From positions 1 to 52,138 of IMG/VR virus record IMGVR_UViG_3300044839_000032: a stretch of DNA of 52,138 nucleotides. One strand, given 5' to 3'. Positions 1,744 through 47,199 of the stretch are shown here, piece after piece (positions within the stretch are counted from its first letter, which is position 1; every line of letters begins with the position of its first letter). The stretch is from a virus (lineage: Duplodnaviria; Caudoviricetes). Position numbers and translations under genes: made by a program. Below the pieces are notes generated by a model. The model saw nothing but the letters and a program-made list of their open reading frames with translations, did no database searches and was not told the DNA's origin.

Positions 1744-1971
1744 ATGGAAGATGTAACCCTGAACCCCGAGTACTGTTACAGCACGAAGGAGCTAGCTTTC
1801 CGTTGGAACCTCAGTTCAGAAACCCTGCGGCGGATCTTCCTGAAGGAGCCGGGCGTCATGATCTTCCGAGAGCAGCAAGCAGGGAAACGGGTCTACCGTA
1901 CGATGAGGATTCCAGGTGCTGTCGCGATCCGGGTTAAGAACCGGATGACGGTAATCGACAAGTCCCGGTAG
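1744..1971 (+). CDS. Excisionase-like winged-helix/MerR-type HTH protein
   Basis: 75 aa with YSTKELAFRWNLSSETLRRIF HTH signature; first gene inside the att repeat; SD GGGAGA before ATG 1744. Confidence 0.7.
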   Translation: MEDVTLNPEYCYSTKELAFRWNLSSETLRRIFLKEPGVMIFREQQAGKRVYRTMRIPGAVAIRVKNRMTVIDKSR

Positions 1972-2036
1972 CAACACCCGCCCGTGGCCGGTTATCTCGG
2001 CGCGGGCAACTCCAAAGAGAGAGGGAGCCCCCCGAC

Positions 2037-2942
2037 ATGCAGGACTGTCCCAAGTGCGGATTCACCGGCGTCATGCACGACGTGAACACGGGCTGCTGGC
2101 AATGCGGCTGGAGACCCGAGCTCGGAGCTGAACTTCCCGAGACCGTCGAAGACGTCGACCGCAAGGTTCAGTTCCTACGTTCGTTCTTCGCGAACGAGGG
2201 CCGCCTTCTTCTCTTTGGGTTTGTCCTTCTAGTCCTTCTCTTCTACAGCACGGTCAAATCGATGAAAGACTTCTTGCTGCTCACCGGCCTCTTTGTCGCC
2301 GCCGCTCTCGCGATCCTCCTCATGGTTCGTTCGGTCCGAGCCAAGGCGATGCGTGTGAAGGCCGTCCCACCGGACCGCTTTTACCTTCGGAACACAGGCT
2401 CCAGTTACACCTTGCTACCGCCGGGACATCCCCGCCTTCCGCAAGCATCTGACGTTGAAGTTTCGATCCGGCCGGACCGTCAGCTTTTCCAGACCCCTGC
2501 CGGACCTCGAATGCTTCGATGGCAACCGGACCCAGAGAACTTAGAAGCGTACGTGGAGTTCTACCGCCCCCTGCGTGGGGCTGAAGCGAAGACCGAGTTC
2601 ATTCAAGGCGTCGAAGAGTTCTTCACCTTGAACCACAACCCGACCATTGGCTTTCTGCAGAACCGCTATGCCGATCACTTGGGCGTGCAAATCCTCACGC
2701 TCGACCTTCCCCCGGAACCGGCGAAGGAAAAGCCGCAACCTATCGACCGTCGTTCGAAGGCCGAGAAAGAGATCGACCGGATGTTCGCGGGCGTGAAGAC
2801 GGCCGCTGAAGCCAGGCGACGCTGGCATGCATTGAAGCAGGACCCCGACCTATCGGCCGCCCTTCAGGACCCGGAGGTTGGACCCAAGTTGAACGGCAAG
2901 TACGAGGAGCTGATCACGAGGATCGCCGAGGGCGACATCTAA
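2037..2942 (+). CDS. Hypothetical membrane protein with N-terminal Zn ribbon
   Basis: CPKC...CWQC, then two hydrophobic helices; SD present; lies just upstream of a coupling-protein gene. Confidence 0.65.
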   Translation: MQDCPKCGFTGVMHDVNTGCWQCGWRPELGAELPETVEDVDRKVQFLRSFFANEGRLLLFGFVLLVLLFYSTVKSMKDFLLLTGLFVAAALAILLMVRSVRAKAMRVKAVPPDRFYLRNTGSSYTLLPPGHPRLPQASDVEVSIRPDRQLFQTPAGPRMLRWQPDPENLEAYVEFYRPLRGAEAKTEFIQGVEEFFTLNHNPTIGFLQNRYADHLGVQILTLDLPPEPAKEKPQPIDRRSKAEKEIDRMFAGVKTAAEARRRWHALKQDPDLSAALQDPEVGPKLNGKYEELITRIAEGDI

Positions 2943-2977
2943 GGTCCATGCCCTGCCCTGTCTCTCGAAGGCACGAA

Positions 2978-2998
2978 TCGCGAAAAAATTTTTCGCGA
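2978..2998. repeat. Perfect inverted repeat TCGCGAAAAA-A-TTTTTCGCGA (candidate origin/binding element)
   Basis: 10-bp arms, 1-nt spacer, intergenic. Confidence 0.7.
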
Positions 2999-3027
2999 CC
3001 AAAGGCGTCCGAGTGGCCGCGAACATT

Positions 3028-3179
3028 AGCCGTATCCGGCTTTCACCTTTCGCCGACCGTGCCGCTCCTATCGTCGGGAGAGTCCCACTAATTTCTATCG
3101 AAATGACCCTATCGGGCTTCGCATCCGCTCGGTGTGCCTCTCCCGACGCTCCGCGCCCCTATCGGGGGTTCGCTATCGC
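3028..3179. other. Cluster of hairpins sharing a TATC tetraloop (candidate oriT or single-strand origin)
   Basis: AGCCG-TATC-CGGCT (3028), ATTTC-TATC-GAAAT (3091), CCC-TATC-GGG (3107), CCCC-TATC-GGGG (3156), GC-TATC-GC (3172). Confidence 0.55.
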
Positions 3180-3216
3180 TCCGCACGGTCGGCGATACCA
3201 AGGTTAGGAGGACCAA

Positions 3217-4893
3217 GTGACTAGAAAAGTCTCCGTTGAGGACATCCTTGAGTCACTGAAACAGACGCACATGCACGTGATCGGCAGTTCCGGTTACGGC
3301 AAGTCTAAGTTCCTCGAATGGCTCATGCGCCATTTGACCAAGTCCACGGACGCAGGCTTCTGCTTGTTCGACTGGCACGGGACGCTCTACCGAGACGTTC
3401 TCAGATACCTTGCCGGCACGGCCTTCAAACTCCGCCCGGTTTACATCCTTGATCCTTCGGACGGCCGTTTCGTGACCGGCTTCAACCCCTTCTCGACTAC
3501 CGACGAGGACATGAGTGCCCAGGTCTCTCGAAGGATCGATGCGACCGTCAAGCCGTGGGGAGCAACCTCGACCGACGAGACCCCCCAGCTCTCCCGCGTG
3601 CTTCGGATGCTCTACTCCTTCGCGGCCGAGGCTCACGCGACCTTGCCGAATGCCCACCTCATGCTCTATGCGGCAAACCAGAACCTTAGGACCTATGCCG
3701 CATCACTTGTGAAAGACGACTACATCCGGCAACAGCTCCGAGACTTTGCCGAGTTCTCCGATTCCTACTTGCGGCAATACGTCTCATCGACGATGAACCG
3801 ACTGGACCGGTTTCTCGCTCCTACCGCTGTGAGGAGAATGCTCGGCAGGGAATCCGGCAACATCTCTATCCGGCAGATACTCGACGAGAACGGCATCTTG
3901 CTTGTGAACCTCTCGGCATCAGGCAACCTCACCAGCGAATCCGGCAAGCTGATTGCCGCACTCCTCATGAACGAGTTTCGAGAAGCGGCACTTGCGAGAG
4001 CAGGGACGAAGAAGCGGTTCGTCCTCTTCCTCGATGAGTTCCAAGAGTACGTCACCCACGACATCGCGCAGATGTTGGACCAGGTCCGAAAAGGCGGGTT
4101 GAACCTCGTGCTATCGCACCAGCACCTGGCGCAGCTCGGCGACGATGAATCGCTCCAGTCCTCGATCGCGACGAATGCCCGGATCAAGGCTGTCTTTGGC
4201 GGGCTGGATTACGAGACTGCCGCGATGGTCGCAAACGAGATCCGCTTGAAGTCGATCAATCGCAGGCAGGTTGAACGGCAAATCTACGGCCACACGGTCC
4301 TCGGCCACTACGTCGAGACTTTCATCAACAAGAGCACGGGCTATGCATCAACCGAAAGCACCAGCGTGAACGCCAACGCGGGGCAAAGCGGCGGGTACGT
4401 GGACGACGAGCCGGAGGTTACGGGTTGGAGCGAGGCCGGCGGAACGACCACGACCTCGACCGACACGAACTCCAGCAGCGAAACCGAATCCCGGCTCCTG
4501 ATGCCGATCGACGGCAAGGAGCTGAAGTCCGAGCAGGCCGTCTCCCAGGCCGAGAAGATCGCGCACGAAGCCTTCAACATCATGACCATGAAACCCCGAG
4601 AGTTGTACCTAAAGCTCCCGGCCATGCCCCAGGCGGTTTGGCAGAGGGTTCCTGAGATCAAGAGCCGCGGCGTCTTTGCAGAGACCTTGAAAGCCTACGA
4701 AGAGAAGGCGTACGAACGTTCGCACGCCCTCCCGCCCGAAGAGGTCGATAAGGCGATGGTCCAATCCCGCGATGACTTCTTTCAAAAGGCTCTGAATTAC
4801 GGTGCGACCTTGAAGCCGAAGAAAGAAGACGGGACCGACGAGGCACCGAAAGAAGGTCGCACCAAAAAACCTCCGCGTCCGCGTTCCAATTAA
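3217..4893 (+). CDS. VirD4/TraD-like type IV coupling protein ATPase (copy 1)
   Basis: Walker A GSSGYGKS, Walker B FLDEFQ, RKGG..LSHQHLAQL motif; SD AGGAGG before GTG. Confidence 0.85.
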   Translation: MTRKVSVEDILESLKQTHMHVIGSSGYGKSKFLEWLMRHLTKSTDAGFCLFDWHGTLYRDVLRYLAGTAFKLRPVYILDPSDGRFVTGFNPFSTTDEDMSAQVSRRIDATVKPWGATSTDETPQLSRVLRMLYSFAAEAHATLPNAHLMLYAANQNLRTYAASLVKDDYIRQQLRDFAEFSDSYLRQYVSSTMNRLDRFLAPTAVRRMLGRESGNISIRQILDENGILLVNLSASGNLTSESGKLIAALLMNEFREAALARAGTKKRFVLFLDEFQEYVTHDIAQMLDQVRKGGLNLVLSHQHLAQLGDDESLQSSIATNARIKAVFGGLDYETAAMVANEIRLKSINRRQVERQIYGHTVLGHYVETFINKSTGYASTESTSVNANAGQSGGYVDDEPEVTGWSEAGGTTTTSTDTNSSSETESRLLMPIDGKELKSEQAVSQAEKIAHEAFNIMTMKPRELYLKLPAMPQAVWQRVPEIKSRGVFAETLKAYEEKAYERSHALPPEEVDKAMVQSRDDFFQKALNYGATLKPKKEDGTDEAPKEGRTKKPPRPRSN

Positions 4894-4899
4894 AGCTCC

Positions 4900-4944
4900 C
4901 AATCCACAGACCCACCTTGTCAAATTCCGCAGGGCTTGTACCGT
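4900..4944 (+). promoter_or_regulatory. Putative promoter (TTGTCA-16-TACCGT) preceded by a DnaA-box-like site; likely leaderless mRNA
   Basis: CAATCCACAG at 4900; the ATG lies 6 nt after the -10 hexamer. Confidence 0.5.
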
Positions 4945-4950
4945 TAGGGC

Positions 4951-5775
4951 ATGCCCAAGACGGACGTTATTCTTTCCAAATGCCGCGCGGAGATTCTTCG
5001 GCTTTTTGCAAGCTATGTGAATCTGACAGGGTCGCATATTCAGCACCTGACCGGCCGCCCCGCCAAGACAATTGAGCGTGACCTTCGTTGGCTTCGCGAA
5101 AACGGCTATCTCGTTTGTAAAGATCATCCGCTCGAGAAGTTCGGTCCGCTCGTTTGGCGTCTCGCGCAACAGGGCTGGGATTGGTGTTTAGACGAGAAGC
5201 TCTTCGACAAGCGGGTCAATGCTACGGATGATAAAGGCGACGGCAACCTCCCGCACGATCTTGTGCTGACCGACCTGCATATCAAGTTCCACGACCTTTA
5301 CGGCGACGACCTCTATTGGACCCAGCTTTACCAGCACTGCTACCGTCGTTTTGACTCAGGCGTGAATGATCGCGTGAACATGGACGCGTTCACGTCGTTT
5401 CCAGTCGGCAATGAACACGTGGTGTTCTGCGTGGAGGCCGAGAAGAGCCGCGACTCGAAGAAGTTCGGTAAGTCTGCGCGCGGTTCAAAGGCCGAAGCCT
5501 ACGACAACTACGCGAAGGGCCACTTCCAGAAAGAGTACGGACCGGGCAGTGATTTCCGCGTTCTCTGGACCTTTAGCACCGCTGTTAAAGCGGCGAACTT
5601 CGCTGGCAAACTGCACGACGAAGGCGGCTCAAGACGGCATTGGATTCTCGATGAGAACCTTATCTCGACGCTCACCAGAGATAGTCAAGCCTTCCTTACG
5701 CCGAAGGATGTTGAGTACCAGCAAGCGCGTCATCGCTGGAACGCACAGCGTCTCTATTCGCTAGATGAGGCGTAG
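4951..5775 (+). CDS. Replication-relaxation (Replic_Relax-like) protein, putative relaxase
   Basis: N-terminal wHTH, LPHDLVLTD, then a PD-(D/E)XK-like MDAF...VEAEKS; sits between two coupling ATPases. Confidence 0.75.
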   Translation: MPKTDVILSKCRAEILRLFASYVNLTGSHIQHLTGRPAKTIERDLRWLRENGYLVCKDHPLEKFGPLVWRLAQQGWDWCLDEKLFDKRVNATDDKGDGNLPHDLVLTDLHIKFHDLYGDDLYWTQLYQHCYRRFDSGVNDRVNMDAFTSFPVGNEHVVFCVEAEKSRDSKKFGKSARGSKAEAYDNYAKGHFQKEYGPGSDFRVLWTFSTAVKAANFAGKLHDEGGSRRHWILDENLISTLTRDSQAFLTPKDVEYQQARHRWNAQRLYSLDEA

Positions 5776-5956
5776 TTGTTATGATGAAATTCGCACGTCT
5801 TACTGCTAGGAGTCAAAGCTTCCTGGCACACCCTTCACACCCGTCCCCCCGGGCGTTCCCCGCTCTGCCGGAGCTACTGAGGAATGCGTCCGGCGGCTGG
5901 CTGATTCCTCAGACTTCTTGCTGGTGCAGGTGGGGACGGGGCTGACGGATTTTTCT

Positions 5957-7321
5957 ATGCTTACTACCGTTGGACTTAATCGCACGAGCTTTGAACGCTG
6001 GAACCAGCCGGTTGAAGTCGATACCGCAAAACACACGGCGGTCATTGGCACCACAGGAGCGGGTAAGACAACCGTCCTCAAGGCCATGATCCTTGCGGAG
6101 ATCGAAGCCGGCCACGGCGTAACCGTGATGGAGCCGCACGGCTCTTTGATCGATGACCTGTTAGATGCGATTCCGCCTCATCGTCGGAATGACGTGATCC
6201 TCTACGACCCCGGCGACCCCTTGAACTCGATCGGGATGAATCCGCTCGAAGGCGAGGACAAGCCGAAGCTTCTTGCGGAGGCAGAGAAGATCGTATCGAG
6301 CGTTTGGAAAGATGCGTGGGGACCGCAGACCTCTTTCCTCTTTCGGAACTTCGGAGAAGCAATTCTCGAAGTGGAATCCGAACCTACATTTCTGCACATC
6401 TACAAGGCGTTCATGGTGAAGGAGTACCGCGACCATCTCGCCGCGAGAGTAACGAGCCCTACCCTCAAGCTCTTCTTCGACAAGTACGACGACTGGGACA
6501 AGCGGCAACAGGAACAGGCCGCGGCTCCCGGCACAAACAAGCTCGACACCTTCATGCAGGTGCCTTTGAGGTACGCAGTTACCCAACGTCACGGCCTCGA
6601 TTTTTCGAAGGTGATGGACGGCTCGCAGATACTTCTTTGCCGCTTTGCGAAGGGCCGGATCGGACCGACTGCAGGAGCCTTTCTCGGTTCGGTTGTGATC
6701 GCAAAGATTCTCTACGCCGCGCTCGCGAGAGAGAAGACGAGCCACCGGCCGCCGCATCGCGTCTTCATCGACGAAGCCGGGAACTTCATGTGCGGATCAG
6801 CGCACGAACAACTTCTCACCGAGGCTAGGAAATACAACGTCTCTCTAACCATGGGCTTTCAGACCAGGAGCCAGCTCACGCCCGAAACCCTGTCTGCTGT
6901 CTTCGGCAACATCGCGTCGCTCTTAATCGCGCGGGTTGGAGCAAAAGACGCGGAGGAGCTCGGGCTTGAGATCGGCGTGCCGGCCGAGACTCTCCAGAAC
7001 TTGCGGAACTTCTGGTGGTACGCCCGGACGGTAAAGGACGGCTTACGAATCGAACCTATCCAGATGGAAGGTTTGAGGTTGAAAGAGATCCCGAAGAACG
7101 AGGAGGTGACACGGAAGATCATCGAACGAAGCAACACGAGATACGCCACTCCCATCTCTGTCATCGAGAAGAACATCAGGACATTCCTTGAAGGAGGAAA
7201 GCGTGAAACTTCAGTCAGTGGACAAAGCCAACGACCTCAGAAAGCAGTTCGACACGGCCAGGGAGGGGGCGGTCAAAGACCTCCTCGCCCAGCGCGCCGA
7301 GATCGACGCGCAGTTGCATGA
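5957..7321 (+). CDS. VirD4/TraD-like type IV coupling protein ATPase (copy 2)
   Basis: Walker A GTTGAGKT, EPHGSL, Walker B FIDEAG, EARKY..MGFQTRSQL. Start ATG 5957 chosen (ORF open from 5918); no clear SD. Confidence 0.85.
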   Translation: MLTTVGLNRTSFERWNQPVEVDTAKHTAVIGTTGAGKTTVLKAMILAEIEAGHGVTVMEPHGSLIDDLLDAIPPHRRNDVILYDPGDPLNSIGMNPLEGEDKPKLLAEAEKIVSSVWKDAWGPQTSFLFRNFGEAILEVESEPTFLHIYKAFMVKEYRDHLAARVTSPTLKLFFDKYDDWDKRQQEQAAAPGTNKLDTFMQVPLRYAVTQRHGLDFSKVMDGSQILLCRFAKGRIGPTAGAFLGSVVIAKILYAALAREKTSHRPPHRVFIDEAGNFMCGSAHEQLLTEARKYNVSLTMGFQTRSQLTPETLSAVFGNIASLLIARVGAKDAEELGLEIGVPAETLQNLRNFWWYARTVKDGLRIEPIQMEGLRLKEIPKNEEVTRKIIERSNTRYATPISVIEKNIRTFLEGGKRETSVSGQSQRPQKAVRHGQGGGGQRPPRPARRDRRAVA

Positions 7322-7379
7322 GTTCGGACACGAGGTAGCTGCGAAGCGCGGCAGGAAACCGAGAGCGCAGCAGCAGTGA
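7203..7379 (+). CDS. Small coiled-coil protein with AT-hook-like KRGRKPR motif
   Basis: Strong SD AAGGAGG before GTG 7203; followed by a terminator. Confidence 0.6.
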   Translation: MKLQSVDKANDLRKQFDTAREGAVKDLLAQRAEIDAQLHEFGHEVAAKRGRKPRAQQQ

Positions 7380-7390
7380 AGTGGAAATGA

Positions 7391-7425
7391 AAAAGCCCCG
7401 GATTGGCCCCGGGGCTTTGTTTTTT
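7391..7425. terminator. Bidirectional rho-independent terminator
   Basis: AAAGCCCCGG/CCGGGGCTTT stem with flanking A and T tracts, between convergent genes. Confidence 0.8.
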
Positions 7426-7442
7426 ACTGCGATGAATCGAGG

Positions 7443-8474
7443 CTATGAAACGGATGCGGCTTCTTCGTCGGCCGGTTCCCAAACCGCCATCTCGCCTTCC
7501 GGTTCCGGCGCAATTCCGAGCATCTCGCGGAGATCAGTCGTCTCGTCGGGTTGCTTGCCTTCCGGGGGAATGCGTACATCAACGTGCAGGGCTCCAGCGT
7601 TCAGAAGCCTGACCGCCAAGTCCTTCGCGCCGTCGATCCCGGCCTCGTCGCCGTCGAGCAGAAGCGTGATGTGATTGAAGCGGGTAAGCGCGATCACTTG
7701 AGCGTCCGTTGCGCGGTTGCCCATGAGAGCTACCGCGTTCATCACACCCTCTCTGACGCACGCCATAACACCCCAAAAACTTTCGCACACGATCACTGAA
7801 TCTCCCTCGACCCGGTGCAGGTTGTAGAGCACCTGGCCGCGATGAAATCCCTTCGGAAACCGCCACCGTTCCGCATGGGGAATGTCAGGATCGATGGACC
7901 GCCCGGCGTACCCGATCAACTGCCCTTCGGGGTTGTGAATGGGGAAGACAACCCGCCCGGCCATCGACCCCTTTCCTGGGAAGAATCCGACACCGAGGTA
8001 TTCGCATTCTTCCTCGTCGAAGTTGCGCCCCGTCAAGTATTCGTGCTTGTGATCGATGTCCTTCAGCTCAAACTTCAACGGCTCGTTCGTTTCGTCGGTA
8101 GGCGTTTCGGCCACTTCGACCTGAGCCACTGCCGCCGGCGAAGTGCTAGCCACTCCAAACCATTCGACCAGGCGTTCAGCCGCTTCGTACTGCGGAACGG
8201 ATTCCATGACCGAAGTGAAGTAGACAATGTCCCCGCCCTTCCTGCCCTTCCGAGCAGAGCAACAGCTTGTGGAGTTGCACTTGAAGTAGTTCTCCCTCAC
8301 GTTCACGGTGAAGTCGTCGTTCGGCTTGTCCTCATGCGTGGGGAGCGGACACTTGCCGCGCCGCCATGTGGACCCCGCCTTCAGCGCGACCCCGTACCTT
8401 CCGAGAACACTCTCGAACGTGATCCGTTGCTTGAGCCGGTCAAAATCGATGGGCTTCCTTCTCGTCTCTGGCAT
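7443..8474 (-). CDS. DNA primase (Zn-binding domain + TOPRIM), phage/plasmid type
   Basis: CPLPTH..FKC...C Zn finger, GRVVFPI..GYAGR, VCESFWG, LLLDGDEAG, QPD; SD AGGAGG before ATG 8474. Confidence 0.85.
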   Translation of the reverse strand: MPETRRKPIDFDRLKQRITFESVLGRYGVALKAGSTWRRGKCPLPTHEDKPNDDFTVNVRENYFKCNSTSCCSARKGRKGGDIVYFTSVMESVPQYEAAERLVEWFGVASTSPAAVAQVEVAETPTDETNEPLKFELKDIDHKHEYLTGRNFDEEECEYLGVGFFPGKGSMAGRVVFPIHNPEGQLIGYAGRSIDPDIPHAERWRFPKGFHRGQVLYNLHRVEGDSVIVCESFWGVMACVREGVMNAVALMGNRATDAQVIALTRFNHITLLLDGDEAGIDGAKDLAVRLLNAGALHVDVRIPPEGKQPDETTDLREMLGIAPEPEGEMAVWEPADEEAASVS

Positions 8475-8968
8475 AGCCAGCCTCCTTGTCAAACGCCAGC
8501 ACAGGCATTGTGCAGGTCTGCTTTGACAATAGGCTTCTTATAGGATTTGAGAAGGCCCGCTAATCCACAAGAAGCGCTAGAACCACAATCACGCTGGAAT
8601 CACCGTCATGCCTTCGAAGGCACCACCTGATCGCACCTAACTCTTATGTCGCGTGACAGTTAGAAAATCAGCCAAGCGTCGGGTTATCTCGCTTTTAGCG
8701 AGAGTACGTGCTTCTTCTATCGCACGTTCAGTCTGGCGTCCCAGCCAGTCCAGTCAAGGGGATCGTTCCGCGCCCAGGAGAGGTCGCGGTCATAGGTAAC
8801 CGGCAGGTCGATGCTTCGCTGATTATATCGACCCGCCACCTAAGACACGCTCCTACCTCTGCGCTCCACGACCCCTGTGACAGTCCTGGCTTGCGGGCCG
8901 CACATCCCGAACGTGCGATAGAAAAACTGTCGCCCGTGTGCTAGTCCCGCGCGGAACACACAAACGAC

Positions 8969-10573: not shown

Positions 10574-11377
10574 ATGAAGTTCGAAATTAAACACCGTTTC
10601 TCTAATGAAGTTCTGTTCTCAATCGAAACTGATTCTTGGAAGCTGGCAGTAGAAGCGGCGATCAAATCCAAAGCCAACCTCCGCTTCGCCAACCTCAGCT
10701 TCGCCAACCTCAGCTCCGCCGACCTCAGCTTCGCCGACCTCAGCTCCGCCAACCTCCGCTTCGCCAACCTCAGCTTCGCCAACCTCAGCTCCGCCGACCT
10801 CAGCTCCGCCGACCTCAGCTCCGCCAACCTCCGCTCCGCCGACCTCAGCTCCGCCAACCTCCGCTCCGCCGACCTCAGCTCCGCCGACCTCAGCTTCGCC
10901 GACCTCCGCTCCGCCGACCTCAGCTCCGCCGACCTCCGCTCCGCCGACCTCAGCTCCGCCAACCTCCGCTCCGCCAAGAACATCCCGCAGTCCTACGTTA
11001 ACCTCGCTTCGAGGGACATCCTCTTTGTCCTCCTGAACCTTAAGAAGGAAGTTCCCGCGCTCAGAAAGAGCCTAATCGCGGGCAGGGTGAACGGTTCACA
11101 GTACGAGGGCGATTGCGCCTGTCTCATTGGAACGCTCGCAAATGCTGACGGCGGTCTCGACAAAGTTTGCTCCGCGATTCCGTTCTACCAAATGGGAACC
11201 GAGAATCCAGGCGAGGCATGGTTCCTAAACATCAGAGAAGGAGACACCCCGGAAACCAACCCGTTCTCAGCGCACGCCGTTGCTCTTTGCGACCTTGTCA
11301 TCAAGAACAAGATGCACGAGTGGGCTCTTCTGCCGAACCCGTTTGAAAAGGCCGCGAAGACCACTCCCGAAGCATGA
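10574..11377 (+). CDS. Pentapeptide-repeat protein
   Basis: About 20 tandem A(N/D)L(S/R)(S/F) repeats, plus a C-terminal domain with CACLIGT. Confidence 0.9.
   Translation: MKFEIKHRFSNEVLFSIETDSWKLAVEAAIKSKANLRFANLSFANLSSADLSFADLSSANLRFANLSFANLSSADLSSADLSSANLRSADLSSANLRSADLSSADLSFADLRSADLSSADLRSADLSSANLRSAKNIPQSYVNLASRDILFVLLNLKKEVPALRKSLIAGRVNGSQYEGDCACLIGTLANADGGLDKVCSAIPFYQMGTENPGEAWFLNIREGDTPETNPFSAHAVALCDLVIKNKMHEWALLPNPFEKAAKTTPEA
10673..10975 (+). repeat. 15-bp tandem coding repeat (GCC(A/G)ACCTC(A/C)GCT(C/T)C)
   Basis: Visible tandem array encoding the pentapeptides. Confidence 0.9.
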
Positions 11378-17136: not shown

Positions 17137-17323
17137 TCTAACGATTCACATTCGCGGCAACCGCGGCCCCGCCCGGTTCAAGGCCGTCATTCGTCTCCGT
17201 CGCCAAGCAGACACTCCCTACTCCCAAGCCATGATGCAGAACTTCGTCGAGCGCATGGAGCTCGTCCTCGATGACGACATTCTCGGCATCGTCGAGAAGA
17301 TCACCGTGAACACGCAGGAATGA
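17123..17323 (+). CDS. Hypothetical protein
   Basis: Overlaps TerS and TerL in an operon arrangement. Confidence 0.5.
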   Translation: MQGRDLTIHIRGNRGPARFKAVIRLRRQADTPYSQAMMQNFVERMELVLDDDILGIVEKITVNTQE

Positions 17324-33385: not shown

Positions 33386-33431
33386 TGCACAGGTTCTTCA
33401 CAGTCCGACCTTCTATACTCAAATCAAGCCC

Positions 33432-34598: not shown

Positions 34599-34599
34599 C

Positions 34600-36255: not shown

Positions 36256-36258
36256 CCA

Positions 36259-39630: not shown

Positions 39631-39740
39631 TTCCCTGACGGTCTGCGTCGGAACCTCACGTCTGGCGCAGCGGTCAGCGAGATAGCGCATAGCGCGCCCT
39701 CCCGACTGAAGCACCTTCACAACCTACATGAGGGACGCCC

Positions 39741-40061
39741 ATGCTCTTTAAGCACTCCTCCGCACTCTCTTACACGAGAGGCATGAACGGCATTACCCAA
39801 GTTCACGGCCTCTACTGGCTCCTGGACTTCATCGAAGCCCATCAGAAACGCATCAAGAAGAACTCTCGCTTCAAGAAGGTCCAACGCTGGGTCCACCGCG
39901 TCCAGTTCCGGAGAGCAACGATCTATTGCTATGCGGGCGATTCCGACGATGACCCACTCGTCTTTCCTCAGAAGCTCTACACCGCCGTCACCGAACCAGA
40001 GATCACGCTCTATCTCATCGATGGAGTTCTCATGACGAAGGAGGAGCGCGATGCACTGTGA
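39741..40061 (+). CDS. DUF6876-like hypothetical protein
   Basis: YTRG...YWLLD.I..HQ...EITLYLIDGVLM; family assignment from memory. Confidence 0.5.
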   Translation: MLFKHSSALSYTRGMNGITQVHGLYWLLDFIEAHQKRIKKNSRFKKVQRWVHRVQFRRATIYCYAGDSDDDPLVFPQKLYTAVTEPEITLYLIDGVLMTKEERDAL

Positions 40062-40293
40062 GAAATGCGGCGTCCGCTTCAGTCCCCTTATTCATATCTT
40101 CCGCGTTCCATTCCTCGGCTGGTTCTGCGGCGCCTGCATCGACGAAATCGAGATCCGAAAGGAGACACGGTGTTCCGATATGAACGCTACAAGAAGACCC
40201 GCTTCTGGGCCGTGTACGAGGGCGAGACCCTCATCTGTCTCACGGTCTACCTCAAAGGCGCACTCACGCTCATCGAACGCATCACCGGCGTAA
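40051..40293 (+). CDS. Small Zn-ribbon protein
   Basis: SD GGAGG; CEKC...CGAC; 3' part overlaps the next gene. Confidence 0.45.
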   Translation: MHCEKCGVRFSPLIHIFRVPFLGWFCGACIDEIEIRKETRCSDMNATRRPASGPCTRARPSSVSRSTSKAHSRSSNASPA

Positions 40294-40385
40294 GACCCGA
40301 CCCGCCGCTTCGCAAACAGCGAGCTCCTCTTCCGCCGATCTACCGCCCCAAACAAGAACCGCTCTTCATCAACGACTCAAAGTGA
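40170..40385 (+). CDS. Hypothetical protein
   Basis: SD AAGGAG before GTG 40170; RFWAVYEG..LICLTVYLKGA. Confidence 0.55.
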   Translation: MFRYERYKKTRFWAVYEGETLICLTVYLKGALTLIERITGVRPDPPLRKQRAPLPPIYRPKQEPLFINDSK

Positions 40386-40399
40386 AAGGAGTGTCCCAA

Positions 40400-40786
40400 T
40401 TGTTCAACTACAACCGCGTCATCGTCAGTGGATACCTCGGCAAAGACCCGGAAACCGCTCCCGCCGGAGCAACTACCGCTACAAAGTTCTCCCTTGCTGT
40501 AACCGACCGCTGGAAGGACGCCGCCGGCGAGAAGCAGGAGCGGACCAACTGGCTCTCGATCGTCGTCTGGAACGGCAACGGCGAGAACGCTTCCCAGTAC
40601 CTCAGGAAGGGCTCCCACGTCCTCATCGAAGGCTCGCTCCGAACCTCCGAATGGGAAGACAAGGAATCCGGCCAGAAACGCTGGAAGACCGAAGTCCACG
40701 CCTCGCAGGTCATCTTCCTCGACAAGAAGCCGGACGAGACTCAGGCCTCTCTGCCTTCGACCTCCCGACGCAAGAAGGCCACATGA
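40400..40786 (+). CDS. ssb: Single-stranded DNA-binding protein (bacterial type, no acidic tail)
   Basis: NRVIVSGYLGKDPE, FSLAV, YLRKGSHVLIEGSLRT; SD AAGGAG before TTG 40400. Confidence 0.9.
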   Translation: MFNYNRVIVSGYLGKDPETAPAGATTATKFSLAVTDRWKDAAGEKQERTNWLSIVVWNGNGENASQYLRKGSHVLIEGSLRTSEWEDKESGQKRWKTEVHASQVIFLDKKPDETQASLPSTSRRKKAT

Positions 40787-41057: not shown

Positions 41058-41083
41058 AAGCCCCGCAATCTCGCGGGGCTTTT
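41058..41083. terminator. Rho-independent terminator between convergent genes
   Basis: AAGCCCCGC/GCGGGGCTT stem followed by T residues. Confidence 0.7.
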
Positions 41084-41705
41084 ACTTACACGGCTTCTGA
41101 ATCTTTCCCACAATTTCGCCGCTGCTCACATCGTAAAACTTAAACAGCCAAGTGCAGTCCTCAGCCGACACAACCGTCGTGGCGCTCGCAAAGTCGTACT
41201 TCTTTTTCGCTTTCTGATCCTGTGCCGCATTCTGGAAGTGCGTGTTCATGTTGTACGTGACACCCTCGCCCAGCTCGTGCAGCTTCTTTGGTACGCTCAG
41301 GCTATCCACTTGCATCGTCTCGACGCCGGTCGCCGTCACCACAAGCGCTGTAAAGGGGTACTCCCAACCCTTCTTTCCTTCATGGGTGATTGCCTTTGGC
41401 GTGTCTTTGAACATCTCGAAGACCCACTCGCCACCATCACCGTTTTCGTTCATGAGTCTGTTTGTTGCCCCGTGGATATTCATCGATACGAGCGTCTGAC
41501 TGACTCCCGTGTTCGAGATGTATGCGACCTTCCACGATCCGGCCTTCGCCACCGGTTCTATCCTCTTCCACGCGTCGATCAGCGAGAGCCTAGCCGCGTC
41601 CGTTCCGCCGCCCGTGCTCACCGTAGGAGCGGCGCTGTTGTCTGTTTCGTGCTTTCCGCAGGCCAGGACCACGAGTACCGCCGCAAGAATCGTCAGTTTT
41701 CTCAT
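41082..41705 (-). CDS. Lipoprotein of unknown function
   Basis: Signal peptide MRKLTILAAVLVVLA-C (lipobox); purine-rich SD. Confidence 0.7.
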   Translation of the reverse strand: MRKLTILAAVLVVLACGKHETDNSAAPTVSTGGGTDAARLSLIDAWKRIEPVAKAGSWKVAYISNTGVSQTLVSMNIHGATNRLMNENGDGGEWVFEMFKDTPKAITHEGKKGWEYPFTALVVTATGVETMQVDSLSVPKKLHELGEGVTYNMNTHFQNAAQDQKAKKKYDFASATTVVSAEDCTWLFKFYDVSSGEIVGKIQKPCK

Positions 41706-41828
41706 CTACCTTCCCTCGCGGGTCATTCTACCCGCAGACACCTGTCCCCACCCTGACCCTTCCATTTTCCGGTCAGCGCGCTAGGCTTAACCTATCCGGT
41801 TCTGCCTTCCCCGTGAGCGAAGGCCTCG

Positions 41829-42257
41829 ATGAGTAACACCATCAAAACCCTCTGCGTGAGCGTGTTAGTAATCGCGGCACTCTGCCCGATGAAGACAACG
41901 ACGGCGCAGACTTCATATGAATCAAGACCAGAACAAGCAAGCAGCACAACCGTCATCGCGACGGTCACTTCGTATTCCTCTGTCGATTCTTGCCATTATC
42001 CTAGCTGTGTCATGGCTTCTGGTCGGCCCGCTTACGTTGGTGCTGTTGCCTGTCCTCGCCGGGTTCCTCTGGGTACGGTGGTGCATATCGCGGGAACGCG
42101 TCTTGTTTGCGAAGATCGCACGGCTAAACGCTTCGATGGCCGGTACGACATCTTTCAGGGATACGGCGAACCCGCTCACCAGAAAGCCCTCCGGTTTGGC
42201 AAACAAACCCTAGAAGTCCATGTCGAAGCTCAAAGTATCAATCTCCCGAAAGTTTAA
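41829..42257 (+). CDS. 3D-domain (MltA/RlpA-like) protein with signal anchor
   Basis: TVTSYSS..., ASGR...GAVACP..VPLGT..., CEDR...RYDIF. Confidence 0.75.
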   Translation: MSNTIKTLCVSVLVIAALCPMKTTTAQTSYESRPEQASSTTVIATVTSYSSVDSCHYPSCVMASGRPAYVGAVACPRRVPLGTVVHIAGTRLVCEDRTAKRFDGRYDIFQGYGEPAHQKALRFGKQTLEVHVEAQSINLPKV

Positions 42258-42348
42258 GTGCGACTCCTGCAAGCGTATGGTTTCTGTTGTCCGGTCAGGC
42301 GACGGACTCGAAGGCCAGGTCTGCGATGAGTGTGCGGGGGTCAAGTAG
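42220..42348 (+). CDS. Small Zn-finger protein (42 aa), not in the ORF track
   Basis: MSKLKVSISRKFKCDSCK...VCDECAGVK. Confidence 0.45.
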   Translation: MSKLKVSISRKFKCDSCKRMVSVVRSGDGLEGQVCDECAGVK

Positions 42349-42495
42349 CCGCCAGAATGTCACTGCTCTTGCCTGAGTACGCGGAGAGACCCGACAATCC
42401 GCGACACCCAGAATCCCCTGTCTGGAGCGCAACTCGCCTTATATCGCATTTAAATCGAAGTTTTGATGAAGCCGGATTTAGGGGATAACTCGGCC

Positions 42496-42523
42496 TTGCA
42501 AGCCGCCGCCGCACAGGTACGAT
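42496..42523 (+). promoter_or_regulatory. Promoter TTGCAA-16-TACGAT facing a long non-coding region
   Basis: Sequence match; reverse DnaA-box-like GGGGATAA at 42481. Confidence 0.55.
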
Positions 42524-42529
42524 AGAAGA

Positions 42530-43206
42530 GTTCCCTTGGAAACTGCTTTCACCAGTTTCATCCTATTGTGGCGGATGGAACGCTCAGATGAGTCCGTGCC
42601 ACAATCACGGGCTCTTTTGTTTCTTGACTCCGGGTTTACGGTGCAACTCCAGACTCGTCGGTGAACACTCCGACGAAACCCGGCGTCAGGGCGCAAAGCT
42701 CTGAATGGTTGTGCGTTGATGGGGGAAGCGACGCGAAGATATTCGTGGAAGGCATGCCGACGAGACACCATACATGTCGGCTACCACGCGAGAGAATGGA
42801 CTAGGTGGTGTTGGAAAGTTCTCTCCTCCCCACCAGCGCACAACCGAGATCGTTCCTTGAAGCGAGAGAGATGTTTCGTGCCTCAAAAATGCGGAGGCGG
42901 GAAGCGAACCCGCCCATAACATCTAAAACACGAGGTTCCGCCGCAACTCTGACTACCTCTCTCACTTCAGCGAATTAGATCGCTGGGAACGCTCGCTAGA
43001 TAGAGCGCCGGATTTCTCCGGGAAGGTATCTAGCCCTTCGAAATACTCGACTCAACTCCGGCTCATGTCCGAGGAACACCAGTACCCTGACCTTTTCAGG
43101 GGTGGGCAACCCTCATGAGAGGAGGAAGGAGAGGAAGAAGGGGCCTGCCTTTGGTTCCAATGGGGGGAGCCGGTAGGGTGTCGCACAATATCTTTTTTAC
43201 GACATA
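42530..43206 (+). ncRNA. Putative large structured non-coding RNA (~670 nt)
   Basis: No convincing ORF; more than 10 hairpins and nested long-range stems (42707-42725/42827-42845; 42858-42870/42957-42969); upstream promoter. Confidence 0.55.
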
Positions 43207-43530
43207 TCAGTTCGCCGGCGAGAGGTAATCGTCGGCCGACTTCTTCTTTGTGAGGTTTTCCATAGCTTCTTCGAACATCGCCTTCTCTTCAGCCGCTCTT
43301 CGCCTCATCTTTTCTTTTCCATCCTCGAGCGCAGCTAGGAGCTCCTCTTCCCGGATCTCGCGCCGTTCCCGCTTCTCGAAGAACGGCTCCAGCGCTTCCT
43401 CGAAGTCGGCCTTGATCTGTTTCATGTTCGAGCGATACGTGAGGATCACGCTTTCAAGCTCAGCGATCCGCCCTATCATCTCGGCGGTCTCAGGGTCCTC
43501 AATCGCTTCGCTCACCTTTCGTCTCGGCAC
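43207..43530 (-). CDS. Coiled-coil hypothetical protein
   Basis: Charged helical 107-aa ORF; SD GGAG. Confidence 0.6.
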   Translation of the reverse strand: MPRRKVSEAIEDPETAEMIGRIAELESVILTYRSNMKQIKADFEEALEPFFEKRERREIREEELLAALEDGKEKMRRRAAEEKAMFEEAMENLTKKKSADDYLSPAN

Positions 43531-43780
43531 GCTCCGATTCTAACCGCGCGACGATCCGCTGAACCTTGATGTTCGCCATCTCTTCGGTCAACGCTCGTTC
43601 ATCTACGTCCGGGTGACCTTCGAGGTACCCGTGCCACATGCCGCCAATCTTCTTTACCGTGATCTTCATCCGAAGAGTCTGCGGGGGAACCTCTGCTTTG
43701 TTCAACTCTTCGGGAATGAACCTGAGGGTGCGCGCGGCTTGCCCGGCTTCCGGTTCTACGGAGCGAAGAGCGGAACCCAT
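43499..43780 (-). CDS. Hypothetical protein (start uncertain)
   Basis: The 3' half (KITVKKIGGMWHGYLEGHP...) looks coding. Confidence 0.45.
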   Translation of the reverse strand: MGSALRSVEPEAGQAARTLRFIPEELNKAEVPPQTLRMKITVKKIGGMWHGYLEGHPDVDERALTEEMANIKVQRIVARLESERAETKGERSD

Positions 43781-43948
43781 AAGAGTCACTTCAAAATAAA
43801 TCCGGCGAAACTGCACAACCCCTTGTGCATCCTCCTTTGACGCGTTTCCGTTCCGAGCTACGGTCTTTTTCGCGTTCGGCCCGTGAGGATGTTTCGAGCT
43901 TAGTGGTAAGCGCGCTCCTCGCAACCCTCCGGGCCGGGCGTCTCACTC

Positions 43949-44164
43949 ATGACCAAGCTAGAAGCATTCATCAAGGCGAAGGGCATCAAGCCCGCCCACC
44001 TCGCCCTCCACGCCGATTACTCCCGCCAGCACCTTCTAAGGATTCGGAAAGGAACCATGGAACCCACCCGGAAATGCATCAAGGCCATCGTCTCAGCCTG
44101 TCGGAGACTGGCCCACGAACCTGTCACGGCGTCCGATCTCTTCGACCTGGACGACCCGGAGTAA
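43949..44164 (+). CDS. Cro/CI (XRE) HTH transcriptional regulator
   Basis: IKAKGIKPAHLALHADYSRQHLLRIRKGTMEP...DLF. Confidence 0.75.
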   Translation: MTKLEAFIKAKGIKPAHLALHADYSRQHLLRIRKGTMEPTRKCIKAIVSACRRLAHEPVTASDLFDLDDPE

Positions 44165-44175
44165 AATGCCCGGTC

Positions 44176-44349
44176 GTGAACGCCGCCCAGCTCATTCTCG
44201 ACTACGTGGACTTTTGCGACCGGCGCGGCCCGGTTCTCGAACTCTCCGAGTACGTGGTCGTCTGGAGAGTAGCGAACGAGATCGCCGAGGAGACGGCGCC
44301 GGAGGATCGCGAAATGGTCCTCGCCAGCATCCTTCCGAACCGCGAGTAG
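44176..44349 (+). CDS. Hypothetical protein
   Basis: Short acidic ORF after the HTH gene. Confidence 0.4.
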   Translation: MNAAQLILDYVDFCDRRGPVLELSEYVVVWRVANEIAEETAPEDREMVLASILPNRE

Positions 44350-44402
44350 CTCTCCATCCGGTAGAATCGCCCGAACTCCATGTCTTTCGAGGGGGCGGGT
44401 GG

Positions 44403-46028
44403 ATGAAGAATCTCCTCTACTACGGGGACAATCTAGATGTTCTGCGGCGGCACATCGACGACGAAGTCGCCGACCTTGTCTATTTGGACCCGCCCTTCAA
44501 CTCCAGCCAGGACTACAACGTCCTTTTTGCAGAGCATGACGGGACCAAGGCCGCTGCCCAAATCAAAGCTTTCGGTGACACTTGGAAGTGGGACGAGTCA
44601 GCCGCCCGCGCTTACCAAGAGGTAGTCGAGTCGGGCGGTCGGGTGTCCGAGGTTCTGCAGGCCTTTCGCGCATACCTCGACCGTACGGACATGCTTGCGT
44701 ATCTTTCCATGATGGCCCCGCGCCTCATTGAGCTGCGGCGGGTCATGAAGCCAACGGCGTCCATCTACCTTCATTGTGACGCGACCGCTAGCCACTACCT
44801 CAAGGTGGTCATGGATGCGACCTTCGGCCCTGAGAACTTCCGAAACGAGATCATCTGGCAGCGGACCCTCGCGAAAGGACTTCAGACCCGCAAGCTCGCA
44901 CAGAATCACGACGTAATCCTTGTTTACCAGAAGTCCGATCAGGCGTATTTCAATCTCGACTCTACCTTCCAGCCTTACGACGAGGATGACCTATCCGAGA
45001 AGACAGCCGGAAAGTACGCTTCCCGCGATGAAGACGGCCGGCGGTTCCAGCTCACCAGCCTCCTTAATCCGAACACCGACCGGCCGAACCTGAAGTATGA
45101 ATTCCTCGGCGTCACCCGCGTCTGGCGCTGGACGCAGGAGCGCATGCAGGCAGCCTATGAAGCGGGCTTCGTGATCCAGACTCAGCCCGGCACGGTCCCA
45201 CGGTTCAAGCGGTATCTCGACGAACAGCGAGGGATGCCACTCCACGACGTTTGGACCGACATCCCGCCCATCAACGCGCGCGCGAAGGAACGCCTCGGGT
45301 ATCCCACACAGAAGCCTGTCGCTCTTCTTGAGCGCATCGTGAACATTAGTTGTCCTCCGGGCGGCGTCGTGCTCGATCCATTCTGCGGTTGCGGGACGTC
45401 GATCTCCGCAGGCCAACGACTGGACCGTCCATGGATAGGAATCGACATCACTCACCTTGCTATAGGACTGATCCGAAGCCGTCTTCGCGGCGAGTTCGGC
45501 GAAGAGATCGCGAAGACATACCGGGTCATCGGCGAACCGACAACCGTAGAAGATGCGATGGAGCTCGCGCATGAAGACCCGTACCAGTTCCAATGGTGGG
45601 CGCTCGGTTTGGTCGGAGCCCGCCGGGACGAGGAAAAGAAGGGAGCCGACCGAGGTATCGACGGCAAACTCGCCTTTCACGACGAGGGTCTTGCCGGGAA
45701 AACGAAGAACGTCGTCATCTCCGTCAAAGCCGGGAAGCTTCACGCGAACCACGTGCGGGACTTGCGCGGAGTCATCGAAAGAGACCGCGCCGAGATCGGC
45801 GTGCTTATTTCGATGGAAGAACCCACGAAGCCGATGCGGTCGGAAGCAGCGAACGCAGGTTTCTACAAGTCGCCGTATGGCACCGACCACCCCCGGCTCC
45901 AGTTCCTCACTATCCACGATCTTCTCCACGGGAAAGGCATCGACTACCCAGCTCCCAGGCAGACTAACGTCACGACCAAACGCGCACGCCGTCACGTGAA
46001 GGATGACGAAGCCCGCAAGCTTTTTTAA
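44403..46028 (+). CDS. N6-adenine/N4-cytosine DNA methyltransferase (beta class) with C-terminal PD-(D/E)XK restriction-endonuclease-like domain
   Basis: YLDPPF, YPTQKP, LDPFCGCGT; C-terminal ADRGIDG...ISVKAG; start ATG 44403. Confidence 0.88.
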   Translation: MKNLLYYGDNLDVLRRHIDDEVADLVYLDPPFNSSQDYNVLFAEHDGTKAAAQIKAFGDTWKWDESAARAYQEVVESGGRVSEVLQAFRAYLDRTDMLAYLSMMAPRLIELRRVMKPTASIYLHCDATASHYLKVVMDATFGPENFRNEIIWQRTLAKGLQTRKLAQNHDVILVYQKSDQAYFNLDSTFQPYDEDDLSEKTAGKYASRDEDGRRFQLTSLLNPNTDRPNLKYEFLGVTRVWRWTQERMQAAYEAGFVIQTQPGTVPRFKRYLDEQRGMPLHDVWTDIPPINARAKERLGYPTQKPVALLERIVNISCPPGGVVLDPFCGCGTSISAGQRLDRPWIGIDITHLAIGLIRSRLRGEFGEEIAKTYRVIGEPTTVEDAMELAHEDPYQFQWWALGLVGARRDEEKKGADRGIDGKLAFHDEGLAGKTKNVVISVKAGKLHANHVRDLRGVIERDRAEIGVLISMEEPTKPMRSEAANAGFYKSPYGTDHPRLQFLTIHDLLHGKGIDYPAPRQTNVTTKRARRHVKDDEARKLF

Positions 46029-46044
46029 AGAGAAAGGCGACGCT

Positions 46045-47199
46045 TTACGCGCCGCCCTGAATCACTTTGAACTTTTGCTGTTGCTTCGGCCACGTTGCCC
46101 GGACACGTTCCGTGAGCCGCACTTGTCTGGCCTGAACCCACGCTGAGTAGTGCTTCTCGACGATCTTCACCGAGTTGCCGAGGATCGCGGCTACGTCCTC
46201 GATAGGAACGCCGTTCGCCAAAAGGCTGGTTGCGAGGGTGTCCCTGAATCTGTGGGCGACCATCATGTTCGTTCCCTTCGAAACGCGAGCGTCCTTCAGC
46301 ACTCTCCGAAGGGTTCTCTGCCAGCTTGAAACGGCCGACAGGGGCTTGCCGTTGCCCGACCAGAAAAAGTAACGGGAGTTACTGTTCTTCGTCGCTTGGT
46401 ACCTGAGCGCATCAGCCACATCAGGCGGAAGAGGCACGAACACCGCTTGCCCCGTCTTTCCCGTCCGAAGCATCAGGTCATCGCCATGCAACCGCTCAGT
46501 TTCGAGACAGGTTGCGTCCTGAATCCTGAGTCCCGAATACCGAAGCAAGAGGACGAAGCACTTGATCCGGTCCGGCCGGTTGTGGCCGTGGTCCCCGTGA
46601 TGCGAATACTTCTCGCACGCCGTGATGATCCGGCCCATTTCCTGATCTGTGTACGGCAGGGTTGGGGGTTCGTCGATCTCAGGGGTTTTGAACTCAGCCG
46701 CCGTATTTTTCGCGATCCACTCAGCAGCGGTGCAGAAGCCCATGAACTGCTTCAGAAGCTCCAGCCGTTTCGCGGCAGTCGCCGGCATCATCTTCCATGA
46801 CGCCTTGAAGGTCGCCAGCTCCGCAAAGGTCAGCTGCTTCACGTATCTAAAGCCCCTGCCTTCGCACCAGGAGACCACCTGACGGCCGATGAACCTCCGG
46901 TAGAGGCGCATGGAGCTTTCGGCTAGGTTCCGGCTCTCAGCCTCAGCCAGGAACAGTTTCGTGGCTTCCTCGATTGTGACGAGCTTCTGATAGCCCCCGC
47001 CGATCTTGCCGGACTTGATCCACTCTCTAATCTCGTTCTGCGCGGCCTCCCACGAGGTCTGGTCCATGTTCCGGCGAACCGACTCTCCACCGAGGGAGCC
47101 TTCAACGTAGATAGGACAGGCGCAACGCCGGTAGCTTCTGCCTCGTTTCGGATTCTCTTTCTGGCATGCGGTTCCGTGCCGCCGATACAGCGTGAGCAT
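46045..47199 (-). CDS. int: Tyrosine recombinase/integrase
   Basis: SGLRIQD (R), KTG (K), HRFRDT (HxxR), LGN, HY; adjacent to the tRNA att site. Confidence 0.95.
   Translation of the reverse strand: MLTLYRRHGTACQKENPKRGRSYRRCACPIYVEGSLGGESVRRNMDQTSWEAAQNEIREWIKSGKIGGGYQKLVTIEEATKLFLAEAESRNLAESSMRLYRRFIGRQVVSWCEGRGFRYVKQLTFAELATFKASWKMMPATAAKRLELLKQFMGFCTAAEWIAKNTAAEFKTPEIDEPPTLPYTDQEMGRIITACEKYSHHGDHGHNRPDRIKCFVLLLRYSGLRIQDATCLETERLHGDDLMLRTGKTGQAVFVPLPPDVADALRYQATKNSNSRYFFWSGNGKPLSAVSSWQRTLRRVLKDARVSKGTNMMVAHRFRDTLATSLLANGVPIEDVAAILGNSVKIVEKHYSAWVQARQVRLTERVRATWPKQQQKFKVIQGGA

Follow-up and report, generated by a model that had tools for sequence, protein, structure and literature searches.

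The window analysed here, the whole 52,138 nucleotides of IMG/VR record IMGVR_UViG_3300044839_000032 (Caudoviricetes), holds a temperate tailed phage that has integrated at a tRNA gene, recognizable from its tyrosine integrase, direct repeats, terminase, capsid, and holin. A 24-bp direct repeat occurs at 1514-1537 and again at 47293-47316 (one 24/24 match, E=3e-8, blastn-short of 47200-47420 against 1-47000), where it overlaps the 3' end of a tRNA-Phe gene (47296-47371, minus strand, ARAGORN). Because the repeated 24 bp lie at the tRNA-Phe 3' end, we delimit a single integrated element of 45.8 kb, from 1538 to 47292. Within it, Pfam and PHROGs identify ERF, YqaJ, NinG, the large terminase, capsid, holin, ssb, a DNA methyltransferase, the tyrosine integrase, two HerA/FtsK/TrwB-like ATPases, and a primase. 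The right flank carries polyprenyl-synthase and chemoreceptor genes in synteny with 20 assemblies of Thermoanaerobaculia (Acidobacteriota), of which the best matches at 99% protein identity, and synteny with the host picks up again at 47255-47295 in these relatives. Host relatives were found through the polyprenyl-synthase flank, and host taxonomy is that of metagenome-assembled genome labels. The G+C content is about 57% in the element and about 64% in the right host flank. The prophage is divided between two styles of translation initiation: its block of 40 lytic genes (8969-39630) starts with almost no Shine-Dalgarno (SD) sequences, whereas genes of the arcs on either side of the block tend to carry them.

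SD strength was taken as the duplex energy (kcal/mol) between positions -20 to -3 and the 16S rRNA tail CACCUCCUUUC, read from a relative of the host. With curated starts, the mean energy is -0.62 in the block (n=40, 39 of them ATG), -7.5 in the left arc (n=7, 4 ATG), and -7.6 in the right arc (n=10, 7 ATG), a difference between block and arcs with a Mann-Whitney p of 1e-7. Since the flank starts had been picked partly with the SD in view, we repeated the test with an identical start rule for both sets. The first start of the open reading frame (ORF) reaches -6 or lower in 7/17 flank genes and 1/40 block genes (Fisher p=5e-4), and the best candidate within 41 codons reaches -8 or lower in 11/17 and 1/40, respectively (p=7e-7). 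The two initiation styles described in the earlier note, which was made from the sequence alone, thus hold under the identical rule, and the split is sharper than described there. The block leaders also pair worse with the 16S tail than the block's own background does (p=3e-5). Once the element is excised as a circle, attP joins the two flanks into a single SD-bearing arc that faces the SD-free arc of the block, so that the partition tracks module and expression class.

The individual leaders agree with that note. SD sites precede the xis-like gene at 1744 (AAAAGGGAGAGAAA-ATG), the ATPase at 3217 (TTAGGAGGACCAA-GTG), orf58 at 7203 (GAAGGAGGAAAGC-GTG), the primase ATG at 8474 (ACAAGGAGGCTGGCT, minus strand), the genes at 40051 (GAAGGAGGAGCGCG-ATG) and 40170 (AAAGGAGACACG-GTG, with AAAGGAG ahead of the start), ssb at 40400 (GAAAGGAGTGTCCCAA-TTG), the lipoprotein gene starting at 41705, the methyltransferase at 44403, and the integrase at 47199 (TTCGGAGGGCGAC-ATG). 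The A/C-rich leaders reported at 9236, 10574, 18984, 24540, and 38569 are likewise present, including that of the capsid gene (24540), which has no SD and not a single G in 20 nucleotides. Two details needed revision. The SD of the primase gene was correctly seen, but the gene lies on the minus strand, at 7443-8474, and the label xis has no family support. Two plus-strand ORFs, 7387-7674 and 7815-8543, were discarded because they run antisense to the primase gene; the matches that tblastn gives for the latter in sister prophages (33-36% identity) are an artefact that mirrors the conserved primase. A preliminary count (0/39 in the block and 11/19 in the flanks) had taken in these two ORFs and omitted the primase itself.

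The block starts are open as well as SD-free. Their leaders (-20 to -1) contain 12.8% G, or 2.6 G per 20 nucleotides, compared to 25.4% in the region, and the dip in G sets in near -19, being absent at -21, and lasts to about +20. Predicted folding energy from -20 to +20 averages -2.88 kcal/mol at block starts (n=40), compared to -7.33 in internal windows of the same genes (n=169, p=9e-12); the corresponding values for flank starts are -9.1 and -6.8. Additional ATGs near block starts are depleted (0.15 versus 0.38 per window, p=0.016). At 25 of the 39 block junctions the start lies within 17 nucleotides of the upstream stop or overlaps the upstream gene and, as this is a co-directional array, most block genes are probably not leaderless. 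Stop-start coupling is not the explanation, because the 14 genes with spacers of 30 to 292 nucleotides after the previous stop are equally SD-less (mean -0.19). We found no fixed leader motif or A-position code in the block: A is raised at -6 only (22/40, uncorrected p=0.01) and numbers 12, 9, and 19 of 40 at -3, -12, and -13. In leaders pooled from four prophages, the words AAC, CAA, AAAC, CCAA, and AACA are enriched. The (CAA)n omega leader of tobacco mosaic virus is a CA-rich translational enhancer of a similar kind.

The host and its other phages use SD sequences. The 16S tail of the host relative is canonical (...GGATCACCTCCTTTCT). In a ribosomal-protein operon of a relative, most genes have purine-rich leaders, with GGAGG ahead of the L23, S3, and L29 genes and AGGGAGG, with a pairing energy of -10.9, ahead of EF-Tu; the host is thus not SD-less. 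By our home-made gene calls for the host and its relatives, 110 of 285 called genes (39%) and 17 of the 55 with unambiguous starts (31%) have a first start at -6 or lower. Host leaders contain about 30-31% G, and leaders with at most two G number 1/55 in the host versus 21/40 in the block (p about 1e-8 to 1e-10). Within host genes, GGAGG occurs at 0.40 of the frequency expected from a synonymous-shuffle null (z=-10.6), and full-length bS1 is encoded in 5/5 genomes of the class tested. The HK97-type capsid family PF05065 occurs at 18 places in 15 of 301 Thermoanaerobaculia genomes (one genome unpublished); 16 of these loci were analysed, leaving out L285 (unpublished) and L295 (cut by a contig end). 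At these unrelated prophage capsids, 11/16 first starts are at -6 or lower, and 11/16 have a candidate at -8 or lower, typically GGAGG-like. The SD-less style is thus not universal among phages of this host class.

The partition recurs in related prophages. Homologues of the second, backbone ATPase occur in 54 of the 301 genomes (two of them unpublished), although many of these matches are only about 30% identical and may belong to elements of another kind. Clear synteny with the backbone is seen at four loci: G433a, G433b, G050, and G004a. The first three carry the xis-like gene, ATPases, orf58, DUF6876, ssb, and integrase at 30-86% identity. G433a, which also has orf274, matches the window at 64% (xis-like gene), 43% and 42% (ATPases), 63% (39430), 70% (ssb), and 76% (integrase). 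It is complete as a prophage and has TerS, TerL, head, and tail genes that are not shared, none resembling the virion genes of the window; its block and that of the window have in common only 39430 and a weak match to 9890. G433b and G050 have subsets of the backbone plus two or three early block genes each (13568, 15083, and 16256; 9236 and 13568). In all three, the style changes where it does in the window, past the divergent primase at one end and ahead of DUF6876-ssb at the other. By automatic gene calling, first starts at -6 or lower number 1/33 in the block and 5/18 in the flanks of G433a (p=0.0002), 1/31 and 4/13 in G433b (p=0.03), and 2/21 and 5/9 in G050 (p=0.0007), and leader G is 14-22% in the blocks versus 24-34% in the flanks. 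The style is therefore uniform within the lytic block in this prophage lineage, although the blocks differ in gene content. Of 60 scorable relatives of the G433a head protein in viral contigs, those at 65% identity or more have no SD (0/18, at 41-59% G+C), whereas 19/42 of the others do, so that start style appears to be heritable within clades and is present at high G+C.

The fourth syntenic locus, G004a, has the backbone, with an ssb 81% identical to that of the window, and no long lytic block. This element may represent an island resembling a satellite, or else a prophage of this lineage that has decayed. The corresponding region, about 26,000 to 47,000 of G004:C1 (L258, L259, and L263), encodes the xis-like gene, ATPases, primase, and ssb, and its genes are mostly SD-bearing. 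The twin ATPases with orf274 between them form a conserved cassette (window 3217-7321, G433:C1 at about 2,410,000, and G004:C1 at about 47,000). Both ATPases match PADLOC "mad8" (E=5e-17 and 6e-16) and phrog_5156; a query with the first against viral contigs returned one weak locus only.

The closest relatives of the block genes are SD-less as well. The capsid has 337 homologues in a large protein collection, many on contigs of 44-47 kb, and matches 59 viral-contig loci of 31-58% G+C; its cluster is viral only in the protein atlas. In 54 loci of the capsid family (31-56% G+C, three near-identical loci left out), 7 of 143 orthologous starts are at -6 or lower and 141 are ATG. Leader G is 11-13% in all G+C classes, with C substituting for A as G+C rises; leaders of the low-GC relatives are A-rich (47% A). 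The closest metagenomic relatives of block genes are SD-less at 27-59% G+C. All 12 ERF homologues with at least 60% identity are SD-free with A/C-rich leaders, whereas 58 of 68 more distant homologues have an SD. Five complete relatives (G006-G010) have in common with the window only the morphogenesis module (17320-36255), encode their own replication or DNA-modification genes, and are SD-poor genome-wide (first starts at -6 or lower: 4/70, 7/81, 6/72, 9/81, and 8/73); a tyrosine integrase was found in none of the five. The capsid family was found in 0/401 genomes of an Acidobacteriota phylum sample, 0/401 of a Thermoanaerobaculia class sample, and 0/5 of the closest host relatives. Among cultured relatives, the capsid has just 25-28% matches, the portal none, ERF at most 42%, and TerL 28% to Stx phages. 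The Bacteroidota -7 promoter word, TAnnTTTG, shows no enrichment in the low-GC relatives (z -0.2 to 2.0); the same scan met no strict sigma-70 pattern in any sequence, and Pfam on 63 of the relatives' proteins gave no clue to a host. G008 encodes a DnaE-type polymerase with an intein, ThyX, and a dCTP deaminase (L157:15515-19618, minus strand), and G006 a Tet/JBP oxygenase with an associated glycosyltransferase (L150:10170-11919), which suggests that these two may carry modified DNA.

We consider it reasonably probable, at roughly 0.6, that a lineage of temperate phages in Thermoanaerobaculia has, as a conserved design of its lytic block, starts that do without an SD and rely on unstructured leaders. 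The 30.7-kb block would then be translated by SD-independent initiation, each start being an AUG in a window of about 40 nucleotides that is depleted in G, hardly foldable, and unable to pair with the anti-SD tail. A leader that lacks G can make no G-C or G-U pairs, which would be an effective means of holding the start open at 57-64% G+C. The 30S subunit would most likely be recruited through single-stranded A/C-rich RNA, by bS1 or by standby binding, and the start then chosen by local unfoldedness and the AUG. The protein bS1 is the usual candidate for recruitment without an SD. The other arc would represent an integration, replication, and accessory backbone with SD sequences of the host type, parts of which occur in other Thermoanaerobaculia genomes. 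The same host ribosome would read both classes, and the partition would be one of lytic operon versus backbone. The uniform style across non-homologous blocks, beside prophages of the same class that use SD, leans towards functional constraint.

Several observations weigh against this interpretation. SD usage by the host is moderate, not strong, at 31-39% of starts. The earlier note treated the flank set as uniform, whereas 4951, 41829, 42771, and 43530 have weak SD sequences, and an SD-bearing backbone is a tendency only (7 to 11 of 17). Three SD-bearing genes of the right arc (39741, 40051, and ssb) have a C-over-G third-position skew like that of the block, so that composition and style do not co-segregate perfectly. 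The sole TTG start of the block belongs to gene 9890, which has homologues in the backbone-only element G004a, and the left style border may therefore be fuzzy. The sister gene calls are automatic and noisy, and their p values modest (0.0002 to 0.03). No sequence of the prophage was found in public RNA runs. We infer, rather than observe, the step involving bS1, the real translation efficiency, and the selection that would maintain uniformity of the block. Common descent of these blocks from an SD-less gene pool could produce such uniformity as well as selection could.

The strongest competing case is ancestry. The block modules may have come recently from phages of hosts that ignore SD sequences, such as Bacteroidota, in which case the style would be a passive relic left by a host jump, retained since it works by chance, and the partition would reflect ancestry alone. 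Low-GC (27-50%) phages that lack SD sequences and integrases are indeed the nearest relatives of the capsid module and ERF, the capsid family was found in neither sample of 401 genomes, and phages of the SD-blind Cellulophaga likewise lack SD sequences (preprint 10.1101/2021.04.21.440840). Inside their genes, the five complete low-GC relatives do not avoid SD sequences (SD-core ratio 0.99), and the GGAGG ratio of the block (0.77) is intermediate between those of the host (0.40) and these relatives (0.93), with the other blocks at 0.69 and the flanks at 0.58. As the closest relatives are SD-less throughout, an origin in an SD-independent phage gene pool is plausible, and to this extent the earlier proposal of "different ribosomes or hosts" has support. 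The rest of it does not, since there is a single SD-using host with a canonical tail and nothing points to a second kind of ribosome; the suggested comparison with Patescibacteria found no support either. A recent jump is also at odds with the 57% G+C of the block and its C-rich leaders, which imply long evolution at high G+C with G kept out of leaders. The Bacteroidota -7 promoter word is not enriched in the relatives. Moreover, three sisters with largely non-homologous lytic blocks have the same style, and SD-less relatives of high G+C (52-62%) exist, so that one recent jump is insufficient for the pattern. We regard the relic as possible but unlikely.

Alternatively, the phage could disable SD-dependent initiation after induction, with the 16S tail or SD-bearing mRNAs as its target, a translational switch that would silence host, lysogeny, and backbone messages while SD-independent lytic mRNAs gain ribosomes. 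If so, the conserved style border would be a temporal-control boundary inscribed in start regions. The match between partition and expression class, the conservation of syntenic borders in four prophages, the coexistence of SD-bearing prophages in the host class, and the many block and backbone ORFs without an assigned function are all compatible with such a takeover, and T4 RegB, which cleaves GGAG in early messages, offers a precedent in which the mRNAs of a phage are sorted by their SD (PMC1702504). However, no ribonuclease, bS21-like, or ribosome-acting family appeared among 65 ORFs (E<=0.001) or 22 ORFs (E<=0.5), and primase and ssb, required in lytic replication, have SD sequences. An enzyme that cuts GGAG should have selected for GGAG avoidance, and avoidance is no stronger in the block (SD-core 0.87 in both; GGAGG 0.77 versus 0.58 in the flanks), which counts against a takeover and makes it improbable in our judgment. 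We give very little credence to two further readings. The suggestion in the earlier note that lack of an SD keeps lytic genes poorly translated in the lysogen has some logic, as under strict SD dependence of the host such genes would gain little from read-through transcription. The starts look efficient instead, with ATG nearly throughout, minimal folding, neighboring ATGs depleted, and G removed beyond what is needed to lose an SD (entirely so in the capsid leader), and the integrase-less relatives have the same style genome-wide. Mis-called starts, or stop-start coupling in a packed operon, might hide SD sequences or make them needless, and the tight junctions described above fit this. The long-spacer genes and the 41-codon search argue otherwise, as do N termini that agree with orthologues within a few codons and leaders weaker than the block's own background.

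Table 1. Features of the prophage and its borders in the window, with SD duplex energies where available.
Feature	Coordinates	Strand	Support and remarks	SD energy (kcal/mol)
attL	1514-1537		24-bp direct repeat	
Left SD arc	1744-7379	+	Pfam, PHROGs, PADLOC; syntenic homologues in G433a, G433b, G050, G004a	
xis-like small gene	1744-1971	+	Name from position only	-9.0
orf301	2037-2942	+		-8.6
HerA/FtsK/TrwB-like ATPase	3217-4893	+		-10.2
orf274	4951-5775	+		-2.6
Second ATPase	5957-7321	+		-6.2
orf58	7203-7379	+		-12.4
Bidirectional terminator-like hairpin	7392-7418		10-11 pairs on each strand, then T run; between convergent orf58 and primase	
DNA primase	7443-8474	-	phrog_47, E=1e-37; AAGGAGG ahead of ATG 8474	-11.9
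Divergent intergenic region, primase gene / SD-less block	8475-8968		Sequence read; ORF 8708-8944 doubtful	
SD-less block, 40 co-directional genes	8969-39630	+	Pfam, PHROGs	
Early block genes	9236, 10574, 11531, 12075, 13215, 14533	+	Methyltransferase-like, pentapeptide-repeat, ERF, YqaJ, DUF3268, NinG, in this order	
Packaging/virion genes of block	17320, 18984, 24540	+	TerL, portal-size, capsid, in this order	
Other block genes	30826, 31784-38505, 38569, 39430	+	Holin (30826); tail-size (31784-38505); 38569; small membrane protein (39430)	
Start of right SD arc	39741-40786	+	DUF6876 39741, zinc-ribbon orf80 40051, ORF (GTG) 40170, ssb 40400	-6.1, -12.5, -11.8 (listed for this region)
Remaining right arc	41082-46028		Lipoprotein-like 41082-41705 (-), orf142 (+), three small ORFs (-)	
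DNA methyltransferase with Mrr/NA-iREase-like domain	44403-46028	+	Pfam, PHROGs, PADLOC	
Tyrosine integrase	46045-47199	-	PF00589, phrog_1; GGAGG SD	-10.0
attR and tRNA-Phe	47293-47371	-	ARAGORN, repeat; attR 47293-47316, tRNA-Phe 47296-47371	

The remaining features of the prophage are listed in Table 1. The region between primase and block is presumed to hold the control region; a promoter scan found no consensus sigma-70 promoter in 8475-8968, and a terminator scan found no terminator at 39631-39740. The methyltransferase gene fuses an N6_N4_Mtase domain to a C-terminal Mrr/NA-iREase1-like nuclease-fold domain. The pentapeptide-repeat gene (10574-11377) contains about 20 tandem units of 15 nucleotides at 10613-11047. 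The zinc-ribbon ORF (40051-40293) and the GTG-initiated ORF (40170-40385) overlap in different frames, each with its own SD. The plus strand is C-rich across the prophage from 2000 to 46000 (GC skew -0.05 to -0.2), minus-strand gene stretches included; the skew is near zero in the host flank and is absent from the low-GC relatives. The tRNA-Phe site is an integration hotspot, as related integrases adjoin the same tRNA in L004 (73% identical over the N-terminal part) and L014, and in L012 a partial copy of tRNA-Phe, 51 nucleotides long, lies some 4.2 kb away from the complete gene.

The components of this design have precedents. A lack of local structure is enough to allow initiation without an SD (Scharff et al. 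2011, PMC3121790). Like the non-SD genes of that study, the block lacks anti-SD pairing and has a folding minimum at the AUG with structured internal windows; unlike those genes, which are scattered over many genomes, it is a contiguous block of 40 genes and 30 kb that adjoins SD-bearing modules of one mobile element in an SD-using host, as computed from sequence. Bacteroidetes start genes without SD, with A-rich leaders, AUG depletion, and adenine enrichment at -3, -6, -12, and -13 (Baez et al. 2019, PMC6847099), and Bacteroidota lacking SD, and likewise phages of theirs, have been described before (Jha et al. 2021, PMC7797042; PMC9976891). The block resembles these in its SD-less, G-poor leaders and in the depletion of AUG near the start. 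However, its host is an SD-using acidobacterium, its leaders are A/C-rich and not A-rich, and the A peaks at -3, -12, and -13 are missing. ACA/CA-rich elements, which act through single-stranded RNA and bS1, enhance translation (Yang et al. 2014, PMC3879156); the block leaders are rich in the same kind of word, but those enhancers work together with an SD, whereas the block has neither an SD nor a fixed motif or position. As in the T4 RegB system (PMC1702504), gene classes of one phage genome differ in SD type; unlike that system, no RegB-like gene was found among the window ORFs, and GGAG is not further depleted in the SD-free class. In a survey of phages, those of SD-using hosts are SD-rich, and Cellulophaga phages are SD-less like their host (Hockenberry et al., preprint 10.1101/2021.04.21.440840). 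The weak folding at block start codons fits the virulent-phage signature of that survey, whereas lytic genes without SD in a temperate phage of an SD-using host depart from its rule. The literature searched, supplements being outside its scope, yielded no temperate phage of an SD-using host whose genome divides into an SD arc and an SD-free arc and whose sister prophages keep that division. Thus, SD-independent initiation and SD-less Bacteroidota phages are known, and the partition within a prophage that is conserved in sisters appears, from these searches, to be new.

Phage genes are commonly held to copy or exceed the ribosome-binding signals of their hosts, and in this soil bacterium, which uses SD sequences, an entire lytic program dispenses with them. 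If the style is functional, phages would have a second, portable route of ribosome recruitment at high G+C. Leaders that are free of G and unfoldable suggest a testable route by which lysogenic and lytic programs may be separated at the level of translation. Gene-calling programs that learn SD motifs from the host will misplace the starts of SD-less block genes, and the block leaders are candidates for expression elements that need no SD in GC-rich bacteria. As a heritable signal, the style of start regions could help to sort phage modules and possibly their hosts.

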